Shown here piece after piece: positions 3,517 through 41,040 of a stretch of 43,126 nucleotides of DNA; position 1 is the stretch's first letter; each line of letters opens with the position of its first letter. The stretch lies in the NCBI GenBank assembly GCA_024278445.1, contig JAJRTC010000202.1, positions 1-43,126 of the forward strand, written 5' to 3'. A program made the position numbers and the translations under genes. This DNA is from Nitrospirota bacterium. GTDB lineage: Bacteria > Nitrospinota_A > UBA7883 > JAJRTC01. The notes under the pieces were generated by a model. It was not told the DNA's origin. It searched no databases and worked only from the letters and a program-made list of their open reading frames with translations.

Positions 3517-4696
3517 GCTTTCACTCATCACCGTTTTTTCGCTCACCTCCGGGTGCCAAACTTTACGTGACCTGCAACTACAGACACCGGCACTTGAAAC
3601 GGTTTATGATTTTGATATGGGCCTGCCTGACGATATGGACTTTGCGTCGCTTGAAACGGCGGCAAACGAATCTATCAAGTACTACGAAAAATTAAAACCG
3701 TCCAGGATATTTCGTGTTGGCGGTAGAAAAGTTTCTGTAAAAGCTCTTTTAGCGTCGGTCAAAAGAATAGTGACCATCTTCAAGCAAACGAAGGATGCGA
3801 AAGAACGGGAGCGCATCATACTGCGAGAGTTTAATATCTACAGGGGAACAGGGCATTACAGGCTGGGAAATGTTCTTGTAACCGGATATTACCAACCTGT
3901 GTTAAACGGCTCGCTAACAAAAAATAAAACGTTTAAATGGCCCCTCTACGCCAAACCTCCCGACCTCGTAACCGCAAATCTTGGTGATTTTTATAAAAGC
4001 CTTAAAGGAAAAAGAATTACGGGACGCGTAAAAAATGGAAGACTCATCCCCTATCACGACAGGACGGCGATAGACAGAAAAGGCGTTTTGGCCGACAAAG
4101 GCCTTGAGATAGTTTGGGTAGACGACCCTGTAGACGTATTTTTTCTTCAGGTGCAAGGCTCGGGCGTCGTACGCCTGTCAGACGGGACAGAGTTTTATGC
4201 CAACTATTCTGCAGTAAACGGCAGGGCATACCGTTCCATCGGCTGGTTTTTGATAAAGAATGGTGCCATACCAAGAAAAGATATGTCGCTTACGGCTATC
4301 AGAAAGTGGCTTAACGAAAATCCTGACGAGCTTGAGCGTGTGCTCGACTATAACCCAAGTTACGTCTTTTTCAGGCGTATGAACGACGGGCCCTTCGGCT
4401 CAACGGGCGCAAAACTTGTTGCAGGCCGCTCCGCCGCGTTTGATCCGCGACGGTTCCCTAAAGGGGCTCTCGCCCATATAACTGTAGATACACCCGTTAT
4501 AGAAAATGGCGAGGTCATAAAATGGAAAAAGGTTGAAAGATTCGTTTTCAGTCACGATCGGGGCGGCGCAATTAAAGGGACTACCAGGATGGATCTATTC
4601 TTCGGGAAGGGAGACAACGCGGGCTTACGGGCCGGATTCATGAAAAACCCCGGCACACTGCTGTTTTTGGTGTTAAAAGATCGATTTGTTGGGTAG
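3494..4696 (+). CDS. mltA: Membrane-bound lytic murein transglycosylase A
   Basis: Lipoprotein signal (LTSGC) when started at ATG 3494. MltA-type motifs are present (YYQP, GSGVVRLSDG, GRSAAFDP, DRGGAIKG..RMDLFFG). Confidence 0.8.
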   Translation: MLKSVFFRLSLITVFSLTSGCQTLRDLQLQTPALETVYDFDMGLPDDMDFASLETAANESIKYYEKLKPSRIFRVGGRKVSVKALLASVKRIVTIFKQTKDAKERERIILREFNIYRGTGHYRLGNVLVTGYYQPVLNGSLTKNKTFKWPLYAKPPDLVTANLGDFYKSLKGKRITGRVKNGRLIPYHDRTAIDRKGVLADKGLEIVWVDDPVDVFFLQVQGSGVVRLSDGTEFYANYSAVNGRAYRSIGWFLIKNGAIPRKDMSLTAIRKWLNENPDELERVLDYNPSYVFFRRMNDGPFGSTGAKLVAGRSAAFDPRRFPKGALAHITVDTPVIENGEVIKWKKVERFVFSHDRGGAIKGTTRMDLFFGKGDNAGLRAGFMKNPGTLLFLVLKDRFVG

Positions 4697-9066: not shown

Positions 9067-9169
9067 AAAGTCGTTCAAACTGTCATTCTGAGGAACCGCA
9101 GGTGACGAAGAATCTCATAACACTGTTAATACTAACGGTTGTGATTCTTCGCCTTTGGCTCAGAATGAC
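9065..9169. repeat. Inverted-repeat element (MITE/REP-like), two arms
   Basis: The left arm is GTCATTCTGAGGAACCGCAGGTGACGAAGAATCTC (9082-9116). The right arm is GATTCTTCGCCTTTGGCTCAGAATGAC (9143-9169). The outer flank AAAAAGTCGTTCAAACT (9065-9081) is identical, inverted, to 35432-35448. Confidence 0.8.
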
Positions 9170-9253
9170 CAAAATGATCCACGACCAAACGTCACATCAG
9201 AATCTTACAATCAACTTTTTTGACAGGTATGTTATAAAGAAGGCCAGATTTTT

Positions 9254-18583: not shown

Positions 18584-18635
18584 AGTGGGTCAGTTTGGTC
18601 ATTCTGAGACAAAGGCGAAGAATCTCGAATTACAT
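18584..18635. repeat. Half copy of the inverted-repeat family, with terminal motif
   Basis: AGTGGGTCAGTTTG + GTCATTCTGAGACAAAGGCGAAGAATCTCGAATTACA, nearly identical in layout to 28723-28775. Confidence 0.7.
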
Positions 18636-18805
18636 GTGGCAACTTCCTTTTTATGTAATTCACCTGCTATCTTCTCCTTCTGGCGGGTTATCCGCCTTGT
18701 CACTATGCATGGTAAGGCAGGTTTCGATCTGATTAAACAGGAGGTGGAGGAAAAGTAGCAAAAGAAGAATTGGAGGGATATGGGGGATGTTGCGCTTTGT
18801 AAAAA

Positions 18806-18848
18806 ACAGGAAAAGTTGTCATCGTTAATGGATGACAACTTTTCCTGT
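18806..18848. other. Perfect 18-bp inverted repeat with 7-nt loop (stem-loop of unknown function)
   Basis: ACAGGAAAAGTTGTCATC (18806-18823), loop GTTAATG, GATGACAACTTTTCCTGT (18831-18848). Confidence 0.85.
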
Positions 18849-18961
18849 CACCATGAGCCTGTCGAAGAATCTCACAACTATTTGGCGAGATTCTTCGTCA
18901 CCTGACGGCTCCTCAGAATGACAACGTTAACTTTGTCATCCTGAACGCAGTGAAGGATCTC
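18847..18961. repeat. Composite or degenerate copies of the inverted-repeat family
   Basis: A degenerate arm GTCACCATGAGCCTGTCGAAGAATCTC, an inverted arm GAGATTCTTCGTCACCTGACGGCTCCTCAGAATGAC (18887-18922), and an extra arm GTCATCCTGAACGCAGTGAAGGATCTC (18935-18961). Confidence 0.65.
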
Positions 18962-24176: not shown

Positions 24177-24334
24177 GTGGGTCAGTTTGCGTATTATTGT
24201 CATGCTGAGCCTGTTCGATTCACTTTATTCACTCAAGGCGGGCTCCGCGAAGTATCTTAAATCTATTATTATAGTATCGGGTGTGATTCGAGATTCTTCG
24301 CCTTTGGCTCAGAATGACCAAACTAACCCACTAC
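24177..24334. repeat. Full-length copy of the inverted-repeat element with both terminal motifs
   Basis: GTGGGTCAGTTTG...GTCATGCTGAGCCTGTTCGATTCACTTTATTCACTCAAGGCGGGCTCCGCGAAGTATCTT ... GAGATTCTTCGCCTTTGGCTCAGAATGAC+CAAACTAACCCACTAC. Confidence 0.85.
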
Positions 24335-31515: not shown

Positions 31516-32522
31516 ATGATCGCAACCAAAAAACTTCATGACGCCCTCTACTGGAAAAAGGTAACGGGCACTGAAAAAATTCAATGCGTCCTTTGCCCTT
31601 TTAACTGCATTCTCGTAGAAGGCAAGGTCGGCATATGTCACGGCAAACAAAACACAGGCGGAAAACTTTACGCCACGAATTATGGCAAAACGACCGCGCT
31701 GGCCTGCGACCCGATCGAAAAAAAACCGTTATATAACTTTTACCCGGGCACACGCATTCTCTCAGCCGGGCCTAACGGCTGTAACTTAAGGTGTCACTTC
31801 TGTCAAAATTGGCAGATATCACAAGAAACCGCCCGCACCATAAATGTGACGCCTGACGACATGGTTTCAAGCGCACTGCGTGAAGGGGCCGTTGGCATAG
31901 CCTACACATACACCGAACCGTTGATCTGGTTTGAGTTCGTTCTCGACACGGCAAAAGCCGCAAAAGCTGTGGGCCTTAAAAACGTTCTGGTCACAAACGG
32001 CCTTATAAACGAGGAGCCGCTAAAAGAGCTTTTGCCTTTCATCGACGCTATGAACATCGATATAAAATCGATGGACGACGGGTTTTACAAAAAATCTGTA
32101 AGGGGACTATAAACCCCGTGTTGAAAACGGTAAAAACGTCGGCAAAAAAAACTCATGTCGAAGTGACGAACCTCGTTATCCCCGGATTAAACGATACAGA
32201 CGAAATGTTTGAAAAACTAACTGACTTTCTGGCAGATATAAATCCGCTGATACCGCTTCACTTTTCAAGATATCATCCGAATTTCAGGATCTCAAACCCG
32301 GTGACACAAGAGAAGACCCTTTATCGTGCGGCCCAAATTGCAAGGCGTAAGCTAAAACATGTATATATCGGCAACATTCCCTCAGACACGCATAACCAGA
32401 CGACATGCCCCACATGTGGAAAACTGGTGGTTGAACGGGCAGGATACACTCTACTGAAAATGTCTGTTACCAACGGGTTGTGTAATTTCTGCGGCTCTGA
32501 AACCGGTGTGGTAACAAGCTGA
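31516..32522 (+). pseudogene. AmmeMemoRadiSam system radical SAM enzyme, interrupted by a -1 frameshift in an A6 run
   Basis: The N-part has CVLCPFNC, DPIEKKPLYNFYPG and GCNLRCHFCQNW. The frame breaks at A-run 32089-32094 (FYKKSVRGL*). With one extra A it would read FYKKICKGTINPVLKTVKT..., continuing into ORF 32118..32522 (NLVIPGLNDTDE, FSRYHP). Confidence 0.75.
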
Positions 32523-32853: not shown

Positions 32854-34092
32854 ATGAGAAAACAGGTTAACCTACTACTGGCGTTTGTTATAGCCATCGC
32901 CAGCATATTGCTAATGACACCCGCCACGAGCTCTGCCATGCCAAGTTTCGCACGGCAGACAGGCCAACCATGCATGACGTGCCATTTCCAACACATACCG
33001 AAGCTCAACGCTTTCGGACGCAATTTCAAACTCAACGGCTTTACCGACGCATCAGTAGATTTAATCGAGGACGACAACCTGTCTTTGCCGGGCCCGATGA
33101 TTCCCTTGTCTTTCATAACCAAAATACGCTATGTAAAAACCGAGGCCAGAAACAGTTCTGGCGTAAAATCCGGCACGGAGCGGGGTGAATGGCAGATACC
33201 GGACGAAGCCGCATTCATGCTCTCCGGTCGCGCAGGTGAACATGCTGGCTATGGATTTGAGATCGCCGATGGCAAAGTAGGCAACGCCAAGCTCGTGTTC
33301 CCGGTCTATAAAGGCGATATAACTGCTGGTTTTACCCTCCACACAACGGAAGGTCACGGGCCTGCAACCGCTATGGAACTTTTCAACACAGGTATACTTC
33401 CCTCCCAGCGTGGTTTTGAGTCGCGCAGAGAGGCGTTTGCCGCGCAAAAAGTTCTCTGGAGCGGATGGGGCGGTAAATCAACCGGCGCAGGTGTCTATGC
33501 CGGTTCAGACATGTTCATGGTCTACGTCACGGCTTGGGCGCCATACTGGGGTGTTGAAGACAAAATAGACACAGGCTCTGATATGTCCATTTATTATCGT
33601 GCCGCTGTCACGCCAACCGTGGGTGACTGGGACCTGATGTTTGGCGTCGCCGGTGCGAGCGGTGAAACCAAGTGCGTCGAGTGCGAGGGTTCAGGCGCGA
33701 CAGTAGTTACCAGCACCGAGACCGACATGATTATGATCGACGCCCAGGCTCAAGGTGAAATCGGCGGCATGACGCTTGAAGTTAACGCTTCATGGGTTGA
33801 CGCAGGCAATACAACTCCTACCGAAACTAACCGCAGAAACCTGTGGAAAGAGGCCAACGCATGGAGTTTGGCCGCCTCACTCGGAATCACACCCACCATT
33901 GGCCTAAAGGCGGGTTACGTCGATTACACAGACAAGAGCGCCGCGTCCGATGTGGATACTACCTCCGTGGTTCTTGGAGGATGGTATGCCATTGCCCAGA
34001 ACATTTACATCATACCGGAATATTCCTGGTATAACGATGAAGGCAGAGAGAACGACAACCAACTTACCCTGATGCTGTTCATGGGCTTCTAA
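32854..34092 (+). CDS. cyc2: Cyc2-like fused monohaem cytochrome c - outer-membrane porin
   Basis: AGGAG SD. A signal peptide ending SSA, then MPSFARQTGQPCMTCHF (CXXCH at 32971-32985). The rest shows alternating amphipathic beta-strand patterns, with C-terminal ..LMLFMGF (terminal Phe). Confidence 0.7.
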   Translation: MRKQVNLLLAFVIAIASILLMTPATSSAMPSFARQTGQPCMTCHFQHIPKLNAFGRNFKLNGFTDASVDLIEDDNLSLPGPMIPLSFITKIRYVKTEARNSSGVKSGTERGEWQIPDEAAFMLSGRAGEHAGYGFEIADGKVGNAKLVFPVYKGDITAGFTLHTTEGHGPATAMELFNTGILPSQRGFESRREAFAAQKVLWSGWGGKSTGAGVYAGSDMFMVYVTAWAPYWGVEDKIDTGSDMSIYYRAAVTPTVGDWDLMFGVAGASGETKCVECEGSGATVVTSTETDMIMIDAQAQGEIGGMTLEVNASWVDAGNTTPTETNRRNLWKEANAWSLAASLGITPTIGLKAGYVDYTDKSAASDVDTTSVVLGGWYAIAQNIYIIPEYSWYNDEGRENDNQLTLMLFMGF

Positions 34093-34113
34093 AGCTGCTT
34101 TTTGAACACTTCA

Positions 34114-34143
34114 CCCCCGCCTTTTAAAGGGCGGGGGTTTTTT
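34114..34143 (+). terminator. Rho-independent terminator
   Basis: CCCCCGCC - 8-nt loop - GGCGGGGG, followed by TTTTTT. Confidence 0.85.
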
Positions 34144-34240
34144 ACGATATTGGCTGGGCATAAAGCCTGCAAAGCCGAAGTCACCAGCCAGAACACCTTT
34201 ATTTTTCAAATTGTTAAACATATACCTATTGCAATTTAGG

Positions 34241-34269
34241 TTGACTTTTCAAAAGAGTTGCTGTAAGTT
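34241..34269 (+). promoter_or_regulatory. Candidate sigma70 promoter (TTGACT - 17 nt - TAAGTT) for the second haem-porin gene
   Basis: Based on hexamers and spacing only. Confidence 0.35.
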
Positions 34270-34292: not shown

Positions 34293-35276
34293 GTGCGCCC
34301 ACACGCTAAAGTTATTATGAGGAAGCATTTTTTTTCGCCGGTTGTTCTGGTGATTACGGTCGTTTTGGTGTTCGCGACGGGGGAATTGTGTTCCGCCATG
34401 CCGAACTACGCGAGGCAATCGGGTGTTTCATGTTTCGACTGCCATTCCAAAACCACAAACCCCGTGAGGAAAATGAAACCCGTAACAGGCGATACGCCCT
34501 CAGCCTATTCTGTTCCGGTCACAACGAAAGGTGTTGACGCGGGTTTTTCCATTCACACTGACCAAACGGAATCAGTATGGAGCGATATCACCCGCCTTCA
34601 GCACGGCGGCAGGGAAACAAAACTGCGCCTTAACAGCCACTCAGACGAAGCTCAAGACAGCCGCACATTAAAAGGTATCTCCACCCAGATTAACGGCAAG
34701 AGTTTTACGGCGGGCCTTGGCCTCGTTCGACAAGGCCTTACTCCAGATTCCAAACAGTCGCAAGACATGTCCGTATGGTACAGGCTGGCCTATAAACCCT
34801 CTTTAGGTAGGCTCAACATGACCGTTGGGCTATTCGGCTCATCATCGTCTTACGGCGAAGGCTCGCCTCTTGGCCTGAAAGGGCCCTACATGAGCTTCGC
34901 GCCCGAATCTTATGGGCTCGACGCCAAGATAAACGGCCGCATAGGCGAAGTCACTTTAGATCTTAAGGCCATGTATCTTAGCCGAAACACACACCCGGCA
35001 GAATCAGCCCTTGGCAACGACGGAGTAGACGACGGGTTTAGCGCATCGGCAAAGGTTAGCCTTTACGACGCTTTCGGTTTAAGCGCCGCATACCGCACAT
35101 ATAAAAGAGCGTCGGTGCAAGCCTCTGATAGCAGAAATATAACGTCTATAGGGGCGTGGCTGAACCTTGCCGACAACATGACGCTGGCATCGAAATACAC
35201 ATCTTTTGGTTCGTCAGACAAGGAAATACTTACAGAAGACAGCGTTTTCTCACTTCTCTTCATCACAAGTTTTTAG
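34293..35276 (+). CDS. Short divergent haem-porin paralogue (signal peptide, single CXXCH, beta-barrel-like body)
   Basis: GAGGAG SD before GTG 34293. A signal peptide ending CSA, then MPNYARQSGVSCFDCH (CXXCH at 34431-34445). Amphipathic strand patterns, with C-terminal ..FSLLFITSF. Confidence 0.6.
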   Translation: MRPHAKVIMRKHFFSPVVLVITVVLVFATGELCSAMPNYARQSGVSCFDCHSKTTNPVRKMKPVTGDTPSAYSVPVTTKGVDAGFSIHTDQTESVWSDITRLQHGGRETKLRLNSHSDEAQDSRTLKGISTQINGKSFTAGLGLVRQGLTPDSKQSQDMSVWYRLAYKPSLGRLNMTVGLFGSSSSYGEGSPLGLKGPYMSFAPESYGLDAKINGRIGEVTLDLKAMYLSRNTHPAESALGNDGVDDGFSASAKVSLYDAFGLSAAYRTYKRASVQASDSRNITSIGAWLNLADNMTLASKYTSFGSSDKEILTEDSVFSLLFITSF

Positions 35277-35312
35277 TTCTGCTGGCGCCAAGTTCGCCAC
35301 CCCACTTTCAGT

Positions 35313-35448
35313 TGTCATTCTGAGTCCGTTCGATTCACTTCGTTCACTCAGGGCAGGCTCCGCGAAGAATCTCAACTGTTGATATTAATAGTGCTATGAG
35401 ATTCTTCGTTACCTGCGGCTCCTCAGAATGACAGTTTGAACGACTTTT
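35313..35448. repeat. Full copy of the inverted-repeat element (long left arm)
   Basis: GTCATTCTGAGTCCGTTCGATTCACTTCGTTCACTCAGGGCAGGCTCCGCGAAGAATCTC ... GAGATTCTTCGTTACCTGCGGCTCCTCAGAATGAC + AGTTTGAACGACTTTTT. Confidence 0.8.
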
Positions 35449-35461
35449 TACATGTTACCTG

Positions 35462-36208
35462 CTAGAAGCGTTCGCCAACAAGCGGTGTGCGCAGTTCCTG
35501 TTCGATTCTGTCAAACATGGAGTTCGTAACTATGATGCTCGGCTTTGCGTTCACCCACTTGCGCCCGTCCCTCACTTCAGCAAAAGGAATGACCTTGATC
35601 TGGGTATAACTCCCGCGATCAAGCATCCTGATAGTGTATCTGTATCGAATAGCAAAGGAACGCGCGTTAACCGGGGTTAAAACGTCAAGAACGGTTGACG
35701 ACTTCATTTTATCTACAACCCATTCTGTAATAATGATTCCGCTGGAGCGATCTACAGTAGAGAGAGGGGTATCTAAAATAGCCTCAAGCGCCCTGCTCCA
35801 CGCAACGCCAAAGCGCATAGGATAATCTTTTTGTACGGCGTTGTTGTCGTATGTAAAAACTTTGGTAGGGGTGGCAGATTCGTCTACAAGCGGCGCAGAA
35901 GCGCCTTTTGCCGTTTCGTCTATCACCTCAAAATATTTGCGGCTCCCAGCCGTCCCCTTTAGTTGCTCGACTTTCAGGACTTTAGGCCGGCTCAAGGTGG
36001 TGCGTAGCTCGTTTTTTGTGGCGATAGGGTTCACCCTGTTTGTTTTCAGGCCGGACGGAGTAACTCCACCGCCACCCTCCCCTTTGGTTTCGCTTTCGGC
36101 CTTGCCTGTTTCGTCGTGCCCCCATATAAGTTTCGGGGTAGAACAGCCAGACACAATAAACGCGAATAAAACAGCAGGTAAAACAGTAAGCGCGAACGTT
36201 TTCTTCAT
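35462..36208 (-). CDS. Lipoprotein, DUF3576-like
   Basis: MKKTFALTVLPAVLFAFIVSGC lipobox from ATG 36208. The C-terminal half (FGVAWSRALEAILDTPLSTVDRSSGIIITEWV) resembles DUF3576. Confidence 0.5.
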   Translation of the reverse strand: MKKTFALTVLPAVLFAFIVSGCSTPKLIWGHDETGKAESETKGEGGGGVTPSGLKTNRVNPIATKNELRTTLSRPKVLKVEQLKGTAGSRKYFEVIDETAKGASAPLVDESATPTKVFTYDNNAVQKDYPMRFGVAWSRALEAILDTPLSTVDRSSGIIITEWVVDKMKSSTVLDVLTPVNARSFAIRYRYTIRMLDRGSYTQIKVIPFAEVRDGRKWVNAKPSIIVTNSMFDRIEQELRTPLVGERF

Positions 36209-36320
36209 ATTCGGATAGCACCACCAGATGATAAAAGATATAAATGCCCCTGTGGCATCCGCCATTATACGCCACAGGATTCTGATTAAAAGAGTTAAGT
36301 TTCAGGAAGTCCCCAATAAT

Positions 36321-38698: not shown

Positions 38699-39778
38699 AT
38701 GTGGCTTAATATAAACGAACTTAGCGCCGACGAAAAAAAAGTTCGCGCCCTCTACCAGTCGTTGCGGGACGACCTGCAACAGAACCTTATCGATTTTGCG
38801 CTTGTAGAATCATACGAAAACTTCAGAAAAGCAGGTGAGAACTATCCCTTTGTTGAAAAACGCGAGCTAAAACCACGCGCGAAAGTTCACGAAAGGGAAA
38901 ACTCCCTGATGAACAGCTTCATCGTGCTTTTCACAGAGTACCCACTCACGCAGAGCATGAAAAAGAACATCCGTTACTTTGACTCTAACAAAATGACCAA
39001 AGAAAACTTCGGCGAGATGAAATTAACCGACATGAAGTTTGCCGACAGGTTTCAGGCACAACAAAAATATTTCGAGTCAGACAAGTTCTACGACCTTTTG
39101 CGCTCGCTCCTCTCCGTAGACTACGCCCTGCTCATCCAGCGCGACACAACCGTAAAACAAAAAAACCGTTTTCTGCTAAGCCACTTTCATGTGCGGATAG
39201 ACTGGCTAATAGACAGCGCCGCAGAATCTCTTGGCAAGGAGTTGCGCTACATCTCAAAAGACCTTTACGAACGCGGCGAAGAATATGCCCAGGAGATGGG
39301 CGAAAAACTTTTCGAGTACTACTCGTTCCATCACTCTGTTGCAGGCAGAAGGACGGCGGCCATGCTAGCGGCCCAGTTCCTGCGCCAGGCGTCCAACTCC
39401 CTTAGCACCGTTTTTGTTTCATCCTCCGAGAGCAGGACGATAACCACGATATCTGAAAACGGAGCAAGCAAGGGGGCGCTTATCCAGCTTGATAAAAACG
39501 CTATCAAGGCGATAGAAGAACACCCGAACGGCGACCCGCAGTTCCGCAAAAAGTTTCTCATCCACGAAACGGCAGATTACGGCGTGGCCAAGTTTTTGGT
39601 GGTATATGCCGCCAATGAACATTCCAAACCGCCGACAGACGGCAAACTGCGAGAGCTTAAGGCGGATGTGCAATGGCAACGCATACGAAAACAGCTCCTG
39701 ATCCCGATCAGCAAATATTCCGCAACGCGCCCTGTCCGCTACCAGATTATTTATGACCAGCAAGACCCGTTATCGTAA
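38699..39778 (+). CDS. Hypothetical protein (359 aa), no recognisable domain
   Basis: A long ORF with host-like composition, divergent from rnr. No motif was identified by eye. Confidence 0.5.
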   Translation: MWLNINELSADEKKVRALYQSLRDDLQQNLIDFALVESYENFRKAGENYPFVEKRELKPRAKVHERENSLMNSFIVLFTEYPLTQSMKKNIRYFDSNKMTKENFGEMKLTDMKFADRFQAQQKYFESDKFYDLLRSLLSVDYALLIQRDTTVKQKNRFLLSHFHVRIDWLIDSAAESLGKELRYISKDLYERGEEYAQEMGEKLFEYYSFHHSVAGRRTAAMLAAQFLRQASNSLSTVFVSSSESRTITTISENGASKGALIQLDKNAIKAIEEHPNGDPQFRKKFLIHETADYGVAKFLVVYAANEHSKPPTDGKLRELKADVQWQRIRKQLLIPISKYSATRPVRYQIIYDQQDPLS

Positions 39779-40868: not shown

Positions 40869-40933
40869 TTTTTTAAAGCCTGAATGTCATCGCGAACGTA
40901 ACTTGTGTTTCGCGTGGCGGTTTAGTTAACGCT

Positions 40934-41040
40934 GTCATTCTGAGCCCGTTCGATTCACTTCGTTCACTCAGGACAGGCTCCGCGAAGAATTTCGAAACAT
41001 AAGGCTCGTCGTCGCACTTAAAAGCGCTCCTCGCAATTGA
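40934..41040. repeat. Copy of the inverted-repeat element with a degenerate right arm
   Basis: GTCATTCTGAGCCCGTTCGATTCACTTCGTTCACTCAGGACAGGCTCCGCGAAGAATTTC ... GCGCTCCTCGCAATTGAC. Confidence 0.65.

Follow-up and report, generated by a model that had tools for sequence, protein, structure and literature searches.

The DNA analysed here (the window) is a contig of 43,126 nucleotides (nt) (JAJRTC010000202.1, assembly GCA_024278445.1) from a bacterium deposited as Nitrospirota bacterium and placed by GTDB in Nitrospinota_A. Two genes for haem-porins, that is, fused cytochrome-porins, lie in tandem on its forward strand. The first (positions 32854-34092, + strand) encodes a canonical Cyc2-type protein of 412 amino acids (aa) with the head MPSFARQTGQPCMTCH and is referred to as the long gene. 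The second (34293-35276, + strand), referred to as the short gene, begins 200 nt 3' of it and is an open reading frame (ORF) of 327 aa whose product carries a signal peptide and the head AMPNYARQSGVSCFDCH and ends in Phe. An earlier reading of the DNA (the original prediction) had reported that the second ORF repeats the layout of the first, with a CXXCH at 34431-34445 and the ending FSLLFITSF, and had suggested that it could be an undescribed small-barrel subclass of haem-porins. The layout was confirmed in the sequence. The suggestion is supported, at the level of prediction, by a conserved family that keeps the CXXCH, by homology to Cyc2 and by 12 predicted strands, and no description of the short form was found in the literature on Cyc2 in Nitrospinae/Nitrospinota, on short, truncated or 12-strand Cyc2, or in the key Cyc2 papers.

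The short protein starts with MRPHAKVIMRKHFFSPVVLVITVVLVFATGELCSA, followed by MPNYARQSGVSCFDCH. Its signal peptide (residues 1-35, 34293-34397) was assigned by inspection and alignment; it has a basic n-region, a hydrophobic core and an A-x-A-like site, with predicted cleavage after C-S-A, and in alignments it falls opposite the signal peptides of long-family proteins. A lipoprotein signal at Cys33 was considered and rejected, as this Cys is unconserved in the short family and there is no lipobox. The GTG at 34293 is preceded by GAGGAG, 4 nt upstream. The N-terminus of most homologues, however, corresponds to Met9 (ATG 34317), and the true start may be this ATG, which would give a protein of 319 aa. 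Either start leaves the signal peptide intact. The haem head MPNYARQSGVSCFDCH (34398-34445) contains the CXXCH as CFDCH (residues 47-51) within a 16-residue pattern, A-x-P-x-[Y/F]-A-R-x5-C-x-x-C-H, in which the five-residue spacing from Arg to Cys is that of Cyc2. It is followed by a variable linker (residues 52-75, 34446-34517), weakly conserved and 20-35 residues long in the family, and by a predicted 12-strand beta-barrel (residues 76-327, 34518-35273) that includes His88 (codon 34554-34556) and ends with Phe327. The Pfam family Porin_4 (PF13609) matched residues 109-307 of the short protein at 24.5 bits (E 2.8e-5), under the gathering threshold of 27 bits, and the long paralogue at 22.2 bits, also sub-threshold. 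A scan of both proteins against NCBIfam gave no match.

Cyc2 was defined by Keffer et al. (2021; PMC8406198) as a signal peptide, a single CXXCH and a 16-strand porin, with the motif AXPXFAR[Q/K][T/Y], five residues from Arg to the first Cys, and PXL four residues after the CXXCH. The long protein of the window has AMPSFARQT, three further residues and CMTCH, with PKL four residues past the CXXCH. More than 500 homologues of it were found, of 396-490 aa, from Nitrospinae, 'Deltaproteobacteria', Nitrospirae, Chlorobium sp. N1 and Nitrosomonadales. PXFAR with the five-residue spacing was present in 109 of 121 long-family sequences and PXL at +4 in 118 of 121, so the long family carries the published Cyc2 signature; Nitrospinota Cyc2 has been assigned to cluster I (PMC9769843). 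The short head of the window, AMPNYARQS, retains the spacing and departs from the literal AXPXFAR[Q/K][T/Y] by F to Y and T/Y to S. Among 32 short-family heads, 24 have PXYAR and six PXFAR (P-x-[FY]-A-R in 30/32), and PXL follows the CXXCH in a single one.

The original prediction held that the two proteins are barely alignable outside the head and advised a profile-profile comparison. The first statement was not borne out. By BLASTP the short protein aligned with its long neighbour at 22% identity over 269 aa (E 5e-14), the head being in addition to this. Profile-profile comparison with hhalign aligned the short and long families over 315 columns with a probability of 100% (E 1.1e-45); the long-family side was a 52-sequence alignment that carries the full Cyc2 signature and has no biochemically characterised Cyc2 among its members. 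The alignment contained a single large gap, facing long residues ∼55-148. A joint MAFFT alignment gave the same map, in which the short form is without long residues ∼61-148 (∼88 residues) and the linker sits opposite this stretch. Collinearity resumes at VYKGDITAGFTLHT of the long protein, which corresponds to VPVTTKGVDAGFSIHT of the short, and continues to the terminal Phe. Shared barrel residues (short/long) include R164/R249, P169/P254, D210/D296, Y228/Y314 and Y267/Y355.

The segment missing from the short form is the best-conserved part of canonical Cyc2. Long-family conservation is 84-100% at each of its residues Q46, H47, P49, L51, N52, F54, G55, R56, F58, K59, G62, T64, S77, P79, K90, R92, G111, P116, D117, E118, G125, R126, G132, E136 and K146. 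The post-haem module has the pattern Q-H-x-P-x-L-N-A-F-G-R-x-F-K...P-D-E...G-R. The long family conserves His47 (84%), Met306 (71%) and Met407 (84%), none of which is kept in the short family; Met407 belongs to the last strand and, close to the periplasmic end, is on the side predicted to face the lumen. These three residues are candidates for the distal haem ligand of Cyc2. In the short family His88 is present in 25 of 32 sequences (78%), as against 2% of long forms at the same column. Since it is not invariant, it was retained as no more than a weak candidate for the distal ligand of the short form.

A search of 5.8 billion proteins returned 19 relatives of the short protein, all of 297-334 aa. 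A profile search of 1.84 billion representatives gave ∼22 clusters of 283-330 aa at E < 1e-35, below which the scores fell to proteins of 400-450 aa that matched in two stretches, head and body. Two further divergent but complete short forms of 304 and 282 aa (P0163 and P0164) were added; other weak profile matches of 263-355 aa proved to be fragments of long forms and were rejected. The family thus comprises ∼24 clusters (50% identity) of 282-334 aa. All 32 full-length sequences have exactly one CXXCH and a terminal Phe, and P37, A40, R41, C47, C50 and H51 are invariant in them.

Comparison of the short gene with its 92%-identical orthologue at locus L009 gave a ratio of nonsynonymous to synonymous substitution (dN/dS) of 0.105 at a dS of 0.395. 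In a ∼97.5%-identical strain, represented in a public metagenome run, the gene differs by an in-frame 3-nt indel at 34611, in a loop. The short gene is a conserved, monophyletic family under purifying selection. Decay or truncation of a long-gene copy into a pseudogene is extremely unlikely as its origin, and so is an ORF that contains CXXCH by chance. The protein is shorter than every accepted Cyc2 and lacks PXL, as a truncated copy might, but the length is held at 282-334 aa across the clusters, CXXCH and terminal Phe are invariant, dN/dS is low and synteny is kept across the phylum. Both the truncated copy and the chance motif were rejected on these grounds.

The short clade formed a bipartition in 200 of 200 neighbour-joining bootstraps (267 shared columns, Poisson distance), a method that is indicative at most for sequences so divergent. 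Its neighbours in the tree are P0021-P0048, the long forms nearest to the long gene of the window, among them the named Nitrospinae protein P0039. This suggests a single origin of the short form by duplication plus deletion. All members with a named source are from Nitrospinota/Nitrospinae; the sources include hydrothermal-vent bins and sediment metagenome-assembled genomes (MAGs), and a Tara Oceans sample also contained one of the clusters. A 4.2-kb contig of a Krumholzibacteriia MAG (L008) matched the short form weakly and over part of its length at 2653-2958 (30% identity, query residues 43-145), and this could be a distant Cyc2-like gene outside Nitrospinota.

The structure was predicted with AlphaFold2 (AF2), as the original prediction had proposed for counting strands. 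With the 19-sequence alignment the predicted local distance difference test score (pLDDT) was 57. An alignment of 108 sequences (short and long relatives, with the mature short form as query) gave a pLDDT of 75.7, a predicted TM-score (pTM) of 0.73 and values of 84-97 in the strand blocks. The same 12 strands were obtained in both runs, at residues 81-88, 128-134, 138-146, 159-167, 174-185, 203-217, 220-231, 245-257, 261-272, 279-293, 296-307 and 317-325 (ORF numbering), in a fold of beta-barrel type; an additional strand of three residues was modelled at 76-78. Each predicted strand is amphipathic, with one hydrophobic and one polar face. The polar face, predicted to line the lumen, has conserved small residues (G84, G128, S130, A166, G179, G208, G262 and G287) and also bears W162, R164, F181, D210, Y270 and W289. 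In the model, turns of 2-6 residues lie on one side and loops of 6-39 residues on the other, a pattern which is the usual outer-membrane topology and predicts both termini to be periplasmic.

The strands would close into a 12-strand barrel. None of the three outcomes that the original prediction had named as refuting it was observed: the homologues retain CXXCH, the gene is no truncated pseudogene, and the fold modelled is of beta-barrel type. Because 16 strands are reported for Cyc2 in the literature and 12 were modelled here, a difference consistent with the 88-residue gap, the short form would have lost the first four barrel strands. An amphipathicity-based strand counter recovered 8 of 12 known strands and was too insensitive to be applied to the long-only segment. 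Foldseek matches in the PDB were exclusively outer-membrane porins, with OprO/OprP, OmpT and Omp38 the best; searches of PDB sequences with the short and long family profiles found no relative with a solved structure. These general and phosphate porins (Porin_4) have the barrel fold class in common with the short form, but carry no haem, have 16 strands, form trimers and reach TM-scores of 0.4-0.48 to the short model.

A barrel that does not close on itself with 12 strands, having instead 14 (by way of the 89-127 loop or of residues 76-78) or closing by oligomerisation, is quite unlikely, and would mean that the small-barrel interpretation overstates the difference from Cyc2. Loop L1 (residues 89-127) is of low confidence, the short strand at 76-78 is there to be counted, and closure is a reading of a model whose Foldseek TM-scores do not exceed 0.48. 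The 12 long strands, however, agree between the two AF2 runs, L1 is weakly conserved, variable in length and not amphipathic, and the barrel has only ∼250 residues at its disposal.

The arrangement of the locus was compared across assemblies. The order rSAM (radical SAM) - LONG - SHORT is found in the window, where DUF3576 and RNase R genes follow convergently, in L011, in L009 (whose flank retains the 3' end of the long gene) and on an independent 18.8-kb contig of a related strain. Two long genes precede the short one (rSAM - LONG - LONG - SHORT) in L002 and L006. The survey of tandem pairs suggested by the original prediction therefore found them in the window, L009, L011, L002 and L006. 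The order is rSAM - SHORT, with no long gene, in L005, L013, L014 and L016/L017 (Tara Oceans and related loci), and another upstream gene precedes SHORT, again with no long gene, in L001, L004, L012 and L015. No long gene is adjacent in 7 of ∼10 lineages. The upstream order PCMT - MreB - GAF-GGDEF - rSAM of the window is retained in L016/L017. In the MAG Candidatus Nitrospinota bacterium M3_3B_026 the long gene (404 aa) follows MreB - GGDEF - CBS - rSAM on L018 and the short gene lies with DUF3576 and RNase R on L001; the two pieces occupy contigs of 128 kb and 312 kb. A break exactly between LONG and SHORT has here divided the ancestral rSAM-LONG-SHORT-DUF3576-RNase R locus, so the two genes can be separated. 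What stays constant at the locus is the short gene; canonical Cyc2 varies, with 0, 1 or 2 copies. A 377-aa gene of L002 (4659-5792; 'Porin domain-containing protein' MNBD_NITROSPINAE04-1147) was considered as an intermediate size class and rejected as a mis-started long form of 439 aa. Its true start is near 4473, and the 98%-identical P0152 has 439 aa with signal peptide and Cyc2 head; L002 thus holds two canonical Cyc2 genes plus the short gene.

The long gene ends in an intrinsic terminator (34113-34144, + strand), consisting of a hairpin at 34113-34138 with an 11-bp stem (8 G-C pairs) and a 4-nt loop, and a T-run. It is a strong terminator, and the hairpin is kept in three of four compared loci (L009 and L011 among them), where substitutions in the stem leave the pairing intact. 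A candidate sigma-70-type promoter of the short gene (34241-34269, + strand) consists of TTGACT (34241-34246), a 17-nt spacer and TAAGTT (34264-34269). It matches only 8 of 12 consensus positions and is missing from the list of a promoter scan; on the other side, the -35 TTGAC is invariant in four divergent loci (short proteins 39-92% identical to that of the window), and -10-like hexamers lie 17-18 nt past it in all four (TAAGTT, TAAGTT, TAGAAT and TATACA). Because the terminator and the -35/-10 elements are conserved and the gene stands alone in most genomes, transcription of the short gene from its own putative promoter, independently of the upstream Cyc2 gene, is supported, as had been proposed. 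No RNA runs were found for the window DNA.

The original prediction had also offered the short protein as a partner of the first gene. An obligate subunit of canonical Cyc2, whether in a hetero-oligomer or as a regulator or chaperone of the long form, is very unlikely. The tandem pairs listed above would fit it, as would the presence of both genes, though unlinked, in M3_3B_026. Against it stand the terminator and separate promoter, SHORT directly after rSAM with no adjacent LONG in L005, L013, L014, L016 and L017, SHORT alone at the locus in L004, L012 and L015, and a long-gene copy number that varies from 0 to 2. The idea is not needed to account for the locus.

Downstream of the short gene, the repeat noted in the original prediction was found to contain a palindrome, but it is no conserved part of the gene. 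It is a nested palindromic multi-copy element (REP/MITE-like; 35309-35437, arms 35313-35324 and 35422-35433) with a fold of -60.7 kcal/mol (z -4.4). The window has 9 copies of its terminal repeat, TGTCATTCTGAG, where 0.1 would be expected; mostly arranged in facing pairs, they are distributed over five intergenic sites (9081-9170, 18597-18923, 24198-24319, 35313-35433 and 40933-40944). In the related metagenome run the depth over the element was 827-1182 against 25.5 in the flanks (∼30-45x), and the ∼97.5%-identical strain has no element at the 35.3-kb site, where 51 nt replace 154 nt including the element. As it is multi-copy and missing at this site in the related strain, the element is a mobile, recent, strain-specific insertion and not a conserved regulatory part of the short gene.

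The convergent neighbour (35462-36265, - strand) encodes a lipoprotein-like product of 267 aa with a weak DUF3576 match. It is immediately convergent in the window, L001-L006, L009, L011, L012 and L014, and so in the majority of the vent and sediment loci, and non-adjacent in L015-L017 (5 kb off in L016/L017). An ORF of 359 aa without a Pfam match (38699-39778, + strand) has counterparts of 358 aa after RNase R in L002 and L004. The rSAM gene upstream of the long gene (31516-32522) is interrupted in the window near 32088-32117, which leaves one ORF of 198 aa and another of 134 aa in a different frame; it is intact (334-338 aa) in L002, L005, L016 and L018. An additional A follows 32088 in the related strain, so the window has a 1-nt deletion in this gene, be it a true frameshift or an error of assembly. 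Two further genes were noted at a distance of 1.5-3 kb from the short gene in L016/L017 (8443-10157) and L005 (9980-11633), loci that have no long gene. They encode a COX1-like protein (445-465 aa) and a cytochrome c (∼105 aa), which may serve as electron acceptors or may be neighbours by chance.

Our favoured explanation, held with moderate confidence, is that the short gene encodes a functional 12-strand mini-Cyc2, a single-haem redox protein of the outer membrane. A Cyc2 of the Nitrospinota type would have lost ∼88 residues, comprising the post-haem module and four strands, and the product would have become a separate gene lineage across the phylum. The haem would be carried on the 16-residue N-terminal peptide, tethered by the 20-35-residue linker to the predicted 12-strand barrel. 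As the cytochrome module is gone and the barrel would be the sole shield for the haem, the peptide probably sits at the periplasmic opening of the narrow barrel or inside it, where the conserved small residues would line the lumen and keep it roomy. A small solute, most probably Fe2+ given the homology with Cyc2, would enter the pore and exchange electrons with the haem, and the electrons would then pass to soluble periplasmic cytochromes. By homology the activity would be Fe(II) oxidation. The lumen of a 12-strand barrel is able to hold a peptide segment, which makes a haem peptide docked in the lumen conceivable. Such barrels with an occupied lumen (autotransporter beta-domains, NanC and FapF) have the strand number of the short model, but they have no detectable homology to it (TM-scores 0.22-0.35) and serve as a functional analogy only.

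Several observations weigh against this explanation. The most conserved module of Cyc2 is missing from the short form, and the positions of long-family Met306 and Met407 are not Met in the short family; with these lost, the haem pocket, ligation and potential may differ, or the activity may be lost. His88, the sole family-specific His, occurs in no more than 25 of the 32 sequences. The model gives the haem head (mature residues 1-30), as well as the linker, a pLDDT below 50 and does not define the position of the head. Among the Foldseek matches, with their low TM-scores, no 12-strand structure was prominent. No redox partner or cytochrome gene was found elsewhere in the window, the remainder of which is housekeeping. 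Little dissolved Fe(II) is present in oxic waters of the open ocean, and in view of the Tara Oceans cluster this speaks against Fe(II) lithotrophy as the general role.

The loss of the conserved Met residues and the gain of His88 make a changed substrate or direction of electron flow a serious rival. The protein would then be a haem-bearing small barrel with altered ligation (His/His through His88, or five-coordinate) and a different potential, acting perhaps in electron export, with another reductant, in iron acquisition or in surface redox sensing, possibly as part of Nitrospinota housekeeping. We consider this possible, though on balance doubtful. It would account for the missing post-haem module and for a His88 that the model places facing the lumen, and it suits the phylum-wide distribution and the housekeeping neighbourhood of the gene. 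Keffer et al. also allow other functions for Cyc2 homologues (PMC8406198). On the other hand, Fe(II) oxidation is the only activity demonstrated within the Cyc2 superfamily (PMC8406198), the Cyc2-specific head motif and spacing are kept, His88 is not invariant and the sequence gives no hint of any particular other substrate.

It is unlikely, by our estimate, that the short form is instead a minimal trans-outer-membrane redox device, with the haem peptide threaded into the 12-strand lumen, which conserved Gly, Ser and Ala residues would hold open, and the haem within tunnelling distance of both faces of the membrane. Electrons would in that case cross the outer membrane without a substrate passing the pore. 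If true, a marine, globally abundant clade would gain an unrecognised means of extracellular electron exchange, with iron or another partner.

The mini-Cyc2 reading may be set beside known systems. Cluster 1 Cyc2 (for example Cyc2PV-1 of Mariprofundus ferrooxydans; PMC8406198), the kind to which the window's own 412-aa protein belongs, has in common with the short form the signal peptide, one N-terminal CXXCH, the head A-x-P-x-[F/Y]-A-R with the same five-residue spacing, and a porin-type barrel ending in Phe. It differs in its length of ∼400-490 aa, against 282-334 aa, and in its 16 reported strands, against 12 predicted. The short form is without PXL and the post-haem module, mostly has Tyr for Phe in the head (24/32), has other residues at the long-family Met positions, and its named members come from one phylum alone. 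Cyc2 of Acidithiobacillus ferrooxidans and Cyt572 of Leptospirillum (clusters 2 and 3) follow the same principle of a fused monohaem cytochrome-porin; they are more distant in sequence, and their descriptions set them apart as full-size, 16-strand proteins. In the porin-multihaem cytochrome complexes MtrCAB, PioAB/MtoAB and Geobacter Pcc, separate polypeptides with 20-26-strand barrels carry 8-12 haems that span the membrane, whereas the short form has one chain, one haem and 12 predicted strands, with no multihaem gene nearby. The short form departs from Cyc2 in four literal criteria (PXFAR, PXL, 16 strands and a length of at least 365 aa) and is clearly homologous nonetheless. Because of these departures it is not Cyc2 in the current sense.

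Cyc2 is the main candidate marker of neutrophilic microbial iron oxidation, and its structure is unsolved. Sequences of less than 365 aa are dropped by both FeGenie and the reference Cyc2 tree (PMC8406198); owing to this filter, and mostly also to the literal PXFAR motif, surveys of iron oxidation systematically overlook the short family. On the evidence of the locus, canonical Cyc2 is dispensable there and the short gene is fixed. The restriction of all named members to Nitrospinota, in vent, sediment and open-ocean samples, raises the question of the role of an outer-membrane haem protein in a phylum best known for nitrite oxidation. The short family represents a natural deletion of Cyc2, with the haem peptide and a predicted 12 of the 16 strands kept under purifying selection. 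It thereby serves as an experiment of nature on which parts of Cyc2 are essential, and offers a smaller, perhaps more tractable structural target.

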